NCBI GenBank assembly: GCA_012008225.1
Contig: GCA_012008225.1_4768.1
Source: a phage
Reading direction: 5' to 3' (one strand)
Length of the DNA: 61,121 nucleotides
A program made the position numbers and the translations under genes. The notes beneath the pieces are model-generated. The model ran no database searches. It was not told the DNA's origin and worked only from the letters and a program-made list of their open reading frames with translations. Of this stretch, positions 25,441-29,346 are shown in pieces (within the stretch, counting starts at the first letter, position 1; every line of letters begins with the position of its first letter).

Positions 25441-25531
25441 AAAAAAGCTCCATTCAGTTAAACCGAATAGAGCATAGTTGAATTATCACACGTACACAAT
25501 CAATTATGTGCAATTAAGATTGAACGTTTAG

Positions 25532-25876
25532 TTACGCAATCCGGCAAGGACTTTGCAGTTTATCACCTTTCTTTACGCGGATTTCGCATTGCATCATACT
25601 GTAATTCGCACTGCTCTCCGGCAACACGATACTTTTCAGCCTCTTCTGCCACTTGTCTGTATTCTGTGACGCTTTCTGAATACAGTTCGGTGAGCACACG
25701 GGCGATCTGGGCGGTTGTCTTGCTGTCGGGCTGAGGGCCGGCAGCGTCACCGAGGTACTTACGGACGGTTGTGATTTCGTTGTGCAACCTGTCATTAGTA
25801 GCGCGATAATCATTAAGATCGGCAACCAAAGACTCAATGCGAGATTGGTATTGACGTTCGATAGCGTCTTTCTCAT
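25532..25876 (-). CDS. o-spanin (Rz1-like outer membrane lipoprotein)
   Basis: Overlaps the end of the i-spanin gene in another frame; signal peptide LALSLWLPILMIIALLMTGC with lipobox Cys, proline-rich mature part; start ATG at 25876 is inferred. Confidence 0.5.
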   Translation of the reverse strand: MRKTLSNVNTNLALSLWLPILMIIALLMTGCTTKSQPSVSTSVTLPALSPTARQPPRSPVCSPNCIQKASQNTDKWQKRLKSIVLPESSANYSMMQCEIRVKKGDKLQSPCRIA

Positions 25877-26060
25877 ATGCTCTTCGTTTCTCCTCCTCGA
25901 AATCAACCGCTTTCTGAGTTTCTTTTTGGTACGACACACCGGCATCGAAACCCTCCTTTCTAGCTGATTCTATGGCATTGTCATAAGCCCAGTTGGCTAG
26001 AATAACAATTAGGACAAGTAGTATCCAAGGTGCAACCTTACTAATTATTCTAAGGAACAT
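25563..26060 (-). CDS. i-spanin (Rz-like)
   Basis: 165 aa; N-terminal membrane segment WILLVLIVILANWAY then charged coiled-coil periplasmic domain; ATG at 26060. Confidence 0.6.
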   Translation of the reverse strand: MFLRIISKVAPWILLVLIVILANWAYDNAIESARKEGFDAGVSYQKETQKAVDFEEEKRRAYEKDAIERQYQSRIESLVADLNDYRATNDRLHNEITTVRKYLGDAAGPQPDSKTTAQIARVLTELYSESVTEYRQVAEEAEKYRVAGEQCELQYDAMRNPRKER

Positions 26061-26281: not shown

Positions 26282-26481
26282 ATTACACTATTTCGAATTT
26301 CATCATTCCAAACGTATTTCCCCTTCTCACCATTTTTATATGATGGAACAGAGAAAACGGATGAACATGGATATAGTTCTGATGTCGTTAAGCGTATACG
26401 CTTACCGTCAAAAGGTCCACCAACACAAAGGAACAGACCAGTCTTAGGCTTCTTCAAAATGGTTCCTCCCCACCTGTACAC
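26266..26481 (-). CDS. Hypothetical protein
   Basis: 71 aa ORF. Confidence 0.4.
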   Translation of the reverse strand: MYRWGGTILKKPKTGLFLCVGGPFDGKRIRLTTSELYPCSSVFSVPSYKNGEKGKYVWNDEIRNSVIWRTS

Positions 26482-26948
26482 TACGCTCTTTTCAGAGTAT
26501 GGGCTACGTCATAGAAGTTAACACCCTGACCACAACTGCTGCAATACTCACAAGACAACCGCACAGCTTCTTCGGCGCTGCAACCAGCCGCCATTGTTCC
26601 CATTAAGAACTCGAACGCACTACCTTCCGCTATAAATTCGTTAGTGTCTGGTAGACCTAATTTACCGTCACCGTAGATAGGATACACAACAAGATCTTGA
26701 GTGATCGCTATACCATAACGTGAATCCGGATTTAAATCAGAGAAAGGTTCTTTACGTCCATTCGGTGTAACACTCAGATGTTCTATGATATCAGTCACAG
26801 GACGTAGTTTACCAGACATTGCAACAAGACATAACCCAATACCTGGAATATCAACTCTGTGAACTTTATTCGTAGATGTTGCAACATTACCCCATGTGAC
26901 CTCACGATCTACAGCCAATACACCATTACGATAAGCAATTGCGGTCAT
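26481..26948 (-). CDS. HslV/proteasome-like N-terminal-nucleophile hydrolase family protein
   Basis: Starts M-TAIAYRNGVLAVDRE (Thr at position 2, as HslV TTIVSVRRNGHVVIAGD); later segment FIAEGSAFEFLMGTMAAG parallels HslV LIAIGSGGPYAQAAARA. Confidence 0.5.
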   Translation of the reverse strand: MTAIAYRNGVLAVDREVTWGNVATSTNKVHRVDIPGIGLCLVAMSGKLRPVTDIIEHLSVTPNGRKEPFSDLNPDSRYGIAITQDLVVYPIYGDGKLGLPDTNEFIAEGSAFEFLMGTMAAGCSAEEAVRLSCEYCSSCGQGVNFYDVAHTLKRA

Positions 26949-27301: not shown

Positions 27302-27742
27302 TCACTCCGGTAATATAATTTCGTAATCAATCAGGAAAGACCGCAGAGGATAAGCCAGTTCGTTTTCCTCTGCAATGTGGTCATAGGAATAGTATTGCTT
27401 TCCTTCAAGACCCTTCGCTGGGTCGTATACGGTTACACCTTCAAATCGCGCGTCGATAATGATCTGATGGAAAAGCCCAGGTAACTGCAAAGAGGGTACA
27501 GTCGCAAGATACAAGCGTCCAGGTCGGATCTGGTGCATACCAGCGGTCACATGCGGTTGTGCAAAGATACCTTGTCGATATAGATAACTAGCAACGTCAA
27601 TATGCCCACGAATATATTCTAGGCTAAATTCCTGGTCTACTTCTTTCGGATCTTTGTCAAGAAGCATAGCTAGGCAAGTTGCCATACAAGACATCATAGT
27701 CGGCTGGGTTTTATGGGTAATGCGATCGTTAATAGTAACCAT
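27302..27742 (-). CDS. Papain-like cysteine peptidase domain protein (C39-like)
   Basis: N-terminal QPTMMSCMATCLAMLL resembles the C39 Q...CG.ACLAM catalytic-Cys motif; downstream His in GLFHQIIID. Confidence 0.45.
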   Translation of the reverse strand: MVTINDRITHKTQPTMMSCMATCLAMLLDKDPKEVDQEFSLEYIRGHIDVASYLYRQGIFAQPHVTAGMHQIRPGRLYLATVPSLQLPGLFHQIIIDARFEGVTVYDPAKGLEGKQYYSYDHIAEENELAYPLRSFLIDYEIILPE

Positions 27743-28080
27743 TAGAACACTTCCTTAAACAAATCAAATTTAACATGCTCGTAGATTTTATTCAGCTGAG
27801 TCAGCTTACGAATAAACTCTTTACTGGTATTCTCGTCAATTGCACAGGTATCCGTCTGGATCTTCCATGTGTCGGAGCGCAAGCGAAGCAAGAATGAACC
27901 GTTCGGGTAAACCGTCTTCGCTTCTGGCATATAGTGCAGAATGCAGGATATCGTTCCTTCAGGTGGTATAAGAACAATATAAGTATCATTCACGTCGCTG
28001 TGACTAATAATCCAACCGCTCTGTAGTAAAGTATCGCGGAGCTGACAATACATTTTCGGAATAATAATATCTTTGGCCAT
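27742..28080 (-). CDS. Hypothetical protein
   Basis: 112 aa ORF, ATGA overlap with neighbours. Confidence 0.45.
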   Translation of the reverse strand: MAKDIIIPKMYCQLRDTLLQSGWIISHSDVNDTYIVLIPPEGTISCILHYMPEAKTVYPNGSFLLRLRSDTWKIQTDTCAIDENTSKEFIRKLTQLNKIYEHVKFDLFKEVF

Positions 28081-28817: not shown

Positions 28818-29167
28818 AGCGGATCTCCTCTCGAGTATTTACATACAGAACTAACTTTATACGAACAATATAGGACAGGTGAGGTGAGGATATAAAGTGT
28901 CTAGTGACGAGATAATCTACAAACGATGAATCCTTGGCAGAGATCTAAGAGCCGCCCCGCGGCGTTACTATAACGTCCCGTGATCGTCAGTGAGGTGATT
29001 GTTACGTCATGTGACTGTTGCGCGCTCTACTGTAACGTTGTTTATTATTACACGCGTTATTATTTTTAATAGATTAGTATGCTATCTATTACATGACTAT
29101 ACTATAACGTCCAGTATAATTGCGTCTGTTACTATCCACCTGCCCACTATGTGCTGTCTATGTACGT

Positions 29168-29239
29168 GCTACCTGGTATTTCCGGCGCGTGCTGTTACCT
29201 GGTATTTTCGACACGCTCGCGCTACCTGGTATTTCCGGC
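29168..29239. repeat. Three direct repeats GCTACCTGGTATTTCCGGC (middle copy GTTACCTGGTATTTTCGAC) at 26-27 bp spacing
   Basis: Copies begin at 29168, 29194 and 29221 in the divergent intergenic region; first and third are identical 19-mers. Confidence 0.7.
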
Positions 29240-29317
29240 ACACCATCTACCGTATAGTCCCGGATGTTATTATTATGAAGTACAACTAAAAAAGTTCTAA
29301 AATAATGCAGATAATAG

Positions 29318-29346
29318 TTGCATCTGATACCCCGTTGTCATACTAT
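29318..29346 (+). promoter_or_regulatory. Sigma70-like early promoter
   Basis: TTGCAT (29318-29323), 17 nt spacer, TACTAT (29341-29346); ~75 nt upstream of first early gene. Confidence 0.45.

Follow-up and report, generated by a model that had tools for sequence, protein, structure and literature searches.

Which activity is encoded by a small minus-strand gene at positions 27302-27742 of a coliphage genome, and on which protein would it act? The gene lies in a window of 61,121 nucleotides, which is the whole stretch of DNA that was analysed and which comes from a Nonagvirus-like siphophage (9g/JenK1/SE1; Queuovirinae). An earlier note had read its product as a papain-like cysteine peptidase of the C39 type. 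C39 enzymes cut after pairs of small residues such as Gly-Gly, Gly-Ala or Gly-Ser, and bacteria normally fuse this protease to pumps for bacteriocin export. To our knowledge, few phages encode a dedicated protease that serves neither capsid maturation nor lysis, and most such enzymes have not been studied.

The gene and its product

The open reading frame was recovered exactly as proposed, with the same ends, strand and length (Table 1). Its start codon (ATG, 27742-27740) shares one base with the TAA of the upstream gene (TAATG at 27744-27740). Over the surrounding block of 2.3 kb, 18 deposited genomes match with an identity of 87-89%, and the gene was found in all 18 of these close Nonagvirus records. 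Since comparison with seven Nonagvirus orthologues gave dN/dS values of 0.06-0.18, indicating strong purifying selection, this is a real and constrained coding gene. The Kyte-Doolittle profile of the 146 amino acids contains no N-terminal signal-like or hydrophobic segment, the highest 19-residue window being 1.1, and the protein is probably soluble and cytoplasmic. A scan for promoters and terminators gave no signal above the shuffled expectation.

Table 1 Coordinates of the C39-like gene, its putative active-site codons and the neighbouring HslV-like gene
Feature	Position in the window	Strand	Remark
C39-like cysteine peptidase CDS (predicted; 146 aa, papain-fold, clan CA, stand-alone)	27302..27742	-	PHROG 4049 member
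Shine-Dalgarno-like AAGGAAG	27750..27756	-	7 nt 5' of ATG; read from sequence
Gln13 codon CAG, putative oxyanion-hole residue, 6 residues before nucleophile	27704..27706	-	116/117; aligns to LahT Gln21
Cys19 codon TGT, putative nucleophile	27686..27688	-	117/117; aligns to LahT Cys27
Cys23 codon TGC, second Cys at +4 (C-x3-C)	27674..27676	-	108/117
His92 codon CAT, putative catalytic base, on beta-strand	27467..27469	-	117/117; aligns to LahT His101
Asp107 codon GAC, putative third triad residue, D-P-x-x-G motif	27422..27424	-	117/117; aligns to LahT Asp117
HslV-like (Ntn-hydrolase) gene	26481..26948	-	one gene downstream; PHROG 1040 'peptidase HslV family', E 8e-32

Conserved residues

The conservation of individual residues was assessed in an alignment of 117 representatives that are 26-54% identical to the phage protein (fractions in Table 1 refer to this set). 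Only four columns are invariant, namely C19, H92, D107 and P108, and four more are nearly so: besides Q13 and C23, these are M26 (116/117) and G111 (104/117). The resulting family pattern, Q-x5-C-x3-C-[LIV]-A-M ... H-x14-D-P-x-x-G, has the order and spacing seen in C39 peptidases, and as judged from the aligned sequences this conservation is far above chance. The earlier note had pointed to a catalytic Cys in the string QPTMMSCMATCLAMLL and to a candidate His in FHQIIID. Both strings are present (residues 13-28 and 91-97, respectively) and contain the right residues, since C19 and H92 are kept in every one of the relatives; homologs lacking them, which would have spoken against the proposal, were not found in this set. 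What the note had overlooked are D107 of the DPxxG motif and the putative oxyanion residue Q13.

Fold and family assignment

Assigning the protein to a family depends on its relatives. As a single sequence, it matched no Pfam family at E<=1 and no NCBIfam family in hmmscan, and phmmer found no PDB sequence at E<=10; it belongs to PHROG 4049 ('unknown function') with an E-value of 7.5e-56. Among the 117 relatives, 38 match Pfam Peptidase_C39 (PF03412; best E 2.4e-6), while C39_2 was hit by eight and C58 by seven. HMM profiles of the family reached PDB sequences marginally (E 0.2-1.4), with the residues aligned correctly. An HHalign comparison of the family with a reference alignment of LahT150 and 25 bona fide PF03412 domains gave a probability of 91% and an E-value of 1.1e-6 over 97 columns and paired the phage Gln, Cys, His and Asp with the LahT residues listed in Table 1. 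In the LahT crystal-structure paper, Cys27 is the nucleophile, His101 the base, Asp117 the third member of the triad and Gln21 the proposed oxyanion residue. A search against C39 families thus fails with the single sequence and succeeds with the relatives and by profile-profile comparison. Because the protein has no Pfam match of its own, whereas 38 of 117 relatives and the HHalign probability of 91% point to C39, we place it in a divergent subfamily of C39-like peptidases and not in PF03412 proper.

The predicted structure agrees with this assignment. An AlphaFold2 model computed from a 26-sequence alignment is confident (pLDDT 92, pTM 0.88) and places Cys19 as the first residue of helix alpha1 (19-28), His92 in the strand 91-98 and Asp107 behind the strand 104-106. 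Its fold is of the papain-like alpha+beta type in a reduced form: the Cys opens the first core helix at its N-terminus, the triad residues follow in the order Cys-His-Asp, and a Gln precedes the Cys by about six residues. The sequence conservation and the model together support a complete Gln/Cys/His/Asp site on a C39 fold, and the protein is predicted to be a divergent C39-like peptidase. The reading of the earlier note is therefore supported by conservation, profile alignment and model alike. In structural comparisons the transporter C39 domains scored higher than the toxin domain StbD-CT, and the best Foldseek match was also PCAT1 (E 1.2e-3). Lower matches were staphopain, followed by StbD-CT (7.7), the deubiquitinase-type proteins Josephin and UfSP (about 7), AvrPphB (7.0) and AvrRpt2 (6.5). 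Close matches in a viral structure library were uncharacterised phage proteins and one Bacillus phage 'Peptidase C39 domain-containing protein'.

This fold assignment is not new. In GenBank (OM386652), the orthologue of phage ESCO3 is labelled 'papain-like cysteine protease (AvrRpt2)', and the same fold call had been made when PHROG 4049 was re-annotated in 2022; every other record that we examined reads 'hypothetical protein'. AvrRpt2 (MEROPS C70) matches the phage protein clearly more weakly than C39 does. C70 is the best match neither by structure nor by profile, and Peptidase_C70 is absent from the top Pfam families matched by the 117 relatives. The label 'C39-like' is more accurate than AvrRpt2.

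Two alternatives to a Gly-Gly endopeptidase are touched by these comparisons. The similarity to Josephin and UfSP raises the question whether the enzyme strips Gly-terminated Ubl modifiers that Bil-type or CBASS Cap2-type defence systems place on phage or host proteins. Such a deconjugase or isopeptidase is unlikely: the structural scores lie below those of C39 peptidases, our literature search found no such phage enzyme and the PADLOC defence models gave no match. The other alternative is that Cys, His and Asp carry out amidase, acyl or transpeptidyl transfer or glycosidase-like chemistry, or that the protein only binds its target. The papain/C39-like clan includes the BtrH acyltransferase and phytochelatin synthase, and one family member shows a weak match to Pfam Phytochelatin (E 0.007). 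Furthermore, glycosidase activity has been reported for an archaeal C39-like protein, so that a C39 fold does not by itself assure proteolysis. We nevertheless regard a non-proteolytic role as highly improbable.

Distribution of the family

By tblastn, the C39-like gene was detected in 197 phage records that comprise Nonagvirus, Seuratvirus, Ackermannviridae, Vequintavirinae, Vibrio VP5/phiVC8-like phages as well as Pseudomonas and Erwinia phages. The hosts of the carriers are Escherichia, Salmonella, Vibrio, Pseudomonas, Klebsiella and Erwinia. An exhaustive profile search yielded 775 clusters (50% identity) at E<=1e-3 and 434 at E<=1e-10, nearly all of them free-standing proteins of 135-160 amino acids. 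A locus search with a narrow alignment returned 15 viral loci and two tiny bacterial contigs, and when contigs of bacterial genomes were scanned with a pattern that picks up close relatives only, just two contigs of at most 1.1 kb carried the family. The close family appears to be restricted to phages. Contig88 of Sulfoacidibacillus thermotolerans Y002 (1073 bp, L025) and Contig_130 of Dyella japonica DSM 16301 (577 bp, L026) carry the gene with 76-77% identity, and they most likely represent contamination of unrelated bacterial assemblies by a Nonagvirus-like phage. The genome of Klebsiella phage vB_Kpn2-P2 (PP848851.1) matches the protein at two separate places, and these two genes may be paralogues.

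The only fusion partners in longer family members are YunG-like and Zn-ribbon domains, and these are not diagnostic. The metagenomic member P0089 has a C-terminal YunG-like domain (PF24591, E 3.5e-9) and P0108, also metagenomic, has C-terminal zinc ribbons. The N-terminal extensions of about 120 amino acids in the metagenomic proteins P0187 and P0085 look MazG-like by eye, which Pfam did not confirm; in phage EP75 a MazG-like gene is located two genes upstream of the C39-like homologue.

Genomic context

In the window, the C39-like gene is the fourth gene of a leftward array that begins after the divergent intergenic region 28818-29304, as expected from the earlier note, which had placed its block at the head of a minus-strand operon. 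This intergenic region contains three 22-nt direct repeats (CGYGCTACCTGGTATTTCCGGC; 29165-29239) with a spacing of 26-27 nt and two near-identical TACTATAACGTCC-like motifs (at 28966 and 29100), to which a third, less similar copy near 29338 is related. The repeats and motifs may belong to an operator, a promoter or an origin. Further along, the array holds the HslV-like gene, spanins, endolysin, holin, terminase and structural genes. The spanins are encoded as an embedded pair (25532-26060, minus strand): a 165-aa ORF (25563-26060) holds an ORF in another frame with the lipobox LLMTGC, as is typical of o-spanins whose genes lie inside that of the i-spanin. A strong terminator-like hairpin with a 12-bp stem followed by T6 (25447-25473, minus strand) separates the spanin genes from the endolysin gene. 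It directly precedes the start codon of the latter (25440) and may mark a transcript boundary within the lysis cassette.

The HslV-like gene is the second putative peptidase that had been noticed in this block, and its membership in PHROG 1040 bears this out. Since Pfam, NCBIfam and PDB sequence matches are all absent, its product is a very divergent proteasome-like protein; it begins with Met-Thr, as expected for the nucleophile of an Ntn-hydrolase. All genes within 4 kb of the C39-like gene were clustered all-vs-all across 25 loci, which represent about 10 lineages. Its pairing with the HslV-like gene is confined to the Queuovirinae, namely to Nonagvirus, a sister group (about 50% identity) and Seuratvirus. 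The adjacency is synteny at the level of the subfamily and not a sign of a two-enzyme system, and a functional coupling of the two is not supported because of this restriction.

Beyond the Queuovirinae, none of the 25 loci revealed a common partner gene, be it for a substrate, an immunity protein or a co-factor, except for a holin cassette in Pseudomonas phage PMBT14. No neighbour is common with Ackermannviridae, Vequintavirinae, phiVC8, a jumbo Erwinia phage or metagenomic contigs. In these other lineages, the gene is found within blocks of small accessory ORFs or within DNA-metabolism modules, next to a helicase (phiVC8), to clamp-loader and SbcC genes (Rivsvirus) or to RusA and ligase genes (locus L020). 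With no direct Pfam match, no ABC transporter and no conserved partner gene, it is an atypical member of its family.

Its place upstream of the lysis genes would suit a Pei-like endo(iso)peptidase that passes through the holin lesions and assists lysis by acting on wall peptides or on links between lipoprotein and peptidoglycan. The holin family is indeed common to PMBT14, but the PMBT14 and Seuratvirus cassettes have a homologous holin and one more homologous gene, which may reflect a single transfer, and the gene is away from lysis genes in other lineages. Moreover, the protein has no wall-binding domain and little similarity to the wall hydrolases NlpC/P60 and CHAP, and the phage already encodes an endolysin and spanins. 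An accessory role in lysis is therefore very unlikely.

Proposed function and possible substrates

Because a single gene moves among unrelated virulent phages with no conserved partner, a substrate from the host is more likely than one from the phage. We consider it somewhat probable that the C39-like protein works in the cytoplasm as an active endopeptidase and cuts a specific protein in trans, probably one of the host, at a Gly-Gly-like site. Cys19 would serve as the nucleophile at the N-terminus of helix alpha1 and His92 as the base, which Asp107 would orient, and Gln13 would correspond to the oxyanion-hole Gln of C39 enzymes. Extrapolating from the behaviour of the C39 family, the enzyme would cut a defined protein of the infected cell after a pair of small residues. 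Its role might be that of an accessory protease for host takeover or counter-defence. As a counterpoint, the leftward array of the Nonagvirus gene runs into lysis and structural genes, and this position could indicate a late, phage-directed or lysis-related role.

A phage-directed role would mean that the enzyme trims a virion component or a small peptide with a Gly-Gly leader during morphogenesis. Removal of leaders is the classical activity of C39 enzymes, the Nonagvirus array also holds terminase, portal, scaffold and capsid genes besides those for lysis, and a prohead protease is not annotated in it (SE1, first 50 kb). However, no substrate gene travels with the C39-like gene, whose neighbours are wholly different between lineages. 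The carriers belong to at least three unrelated groups (Ackermannviridae, Vequintavirinae, Queuovirinae), for which one common phage substrate is improbable, and in many carriers the gene is situated in early or replication regions. On these grounds we rejected it as a prohead protease, and processing of the phage's own proteins in general is not a likely function.

The most concrete candidates for a host substrate are GyrB and ParE. Recent work has shown that free C39 peptidases can serve as precise weapons inside cells. The T6SS effector Cpe1 (PMC12136450) and the CDI toxin StbD-CT (bioRxiv 10.64898/2026.05.07.723447) both cut the ATP-lid of these two proteins, between LHAGG and KF; neither paper mentions phage homologues. 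By cleaving the same Gly-Gly lid, the phage enzyme would shut down the function of the host chromosome, and Ackermannviridae would depend on the T4-type topoisomerase II that they themselves encode. Two subfamilies of the Ackermannviridae are represented by Kuttervirus EP75 and Agtrevirus Ag3, and in both phages the C39-like gene is located between the topoisomerase II genes for the T4-type large (gp39+60) and medium (gp52) subunits (EP75 L002:2071-5757, Ag3 L027:1074-4768), with a 1-nt gap upstream and an overlap of 4 or 8 nt downstream. The ATP-lid of the EP75 topoisomerase II reads LYAGSNF and lacks the Gly-Gly of the GyrB lid (LHAGGKF). Gene order and lid are circumstantial; together with a C-x3-C pair common to StbD-CT, they make a topoisomerase-directed function a concrete hypothesis. 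It stays a minority reading, because the phage family is structurally nearer to the transporter domains than to the toxin, because most carriers, this phage included, have no annotated topoisomerase gene (for Nonagvirus, the annotation was examined up to 50 kb in the SE1 genome of 60 kb) and because a Gly-Ser lid may still be cleavable. We hold a topoisomerase-directed function to be distinctly unlikely. The wider picture, a large phage family of free C39 proteases that serve host takeover or counter-defence by cutting a Gly-Gly site in a key protein of the host, most concretely this lid, appears equally doubtful. If it were true, Ackermannviridae would co-express the protease with their own Gly-Gly-less topoisomerase II, which would replace the host enzyme, and the GyrB/ParE-lid version would be the first phage use of the Cpe1/StbD-CT toxin mechanism.

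The start of the gene in EP75 deserves a remark. The deposited CDS (NC_049433.1, HYP60_gp128, L002:3986-4435) begins at an internal Met (MSACLAM...) and thereby loses the Gln and the putative catalytic Cys. The full ORF begins 51 nt upstream (MVLNPLVHQKQPTGNTCMSACLAM...), after a gap of 1 nt behind the stop codon of the large-subunit gene, and the annotation of Ag3 carries the long form.

Our literature search found no experimental or functional study of this phage family. The finding is of value mainly because the family is large and conserved and because its link to the recently described C39 toxins can be tested. The annotation 'C39-like cysteine peptidase' would improve hundreds of genes that are now called 'hypothetical', and at least one mis-called start codon (EP75) is corrected. 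Identification of the substrate would reveal a new step of host takeover or anti-defence, and a compact sequence-specific protease could come from the family.

Comparison with known systems

The C39 domains of PCAT/AMS ABC transporters (LahT, PCAT1, ComA; PF03412) are the nearest structural relatives. The phage protein differs from them in being a free-standing protein of 146 amino acids without transmembrane or ABC domains, and it is too divergent for a direct Pfam match. It is neither the N-terminal domain of a bacteriocin ABC exporter with a Gly-Gly leader nor encoded beside one, and in about 25 loci no gene for an ABC transporter or a leader peptide was found near it.

The Pei enzymes PeiW, PeiP and PeiR bear N-terminal pseudomurein-binding repeats. 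They belong to MEROPS C71, come from archaeal viruses and act on archaeal walls, whereas the phage protein consists of the catalytic domain alone and comes from phages of Gram-negative hosts. The combination of a C71 catalytic domain with such repeats and a wall substrate is not found here.

Cpe1 and StbD-CT are C-terminal domains of delivery proteins (PAAR and CdiA, respectively) and have immunity genes next to their own. By contrast, the phage protein shows no fusion to PAAR, VgrG, Rhs or CdiA and no N-terminal extension, and no immunity gene accompanies it. With StbD-CT it shares the spacing of two cysteines, Cys19/Cys23 in the phage protein and Cys183/Cys187 in the toxin, where this C-x3-C pair has been linked to redox-regulated activity (bioRxiv 10.64898/2026.05.07.723447). 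As a protease for host takeover or counter-defence, the phage enzyme would be comparable to these free C39 toxins and not to an enzyme that processes bacteriocin leaders.
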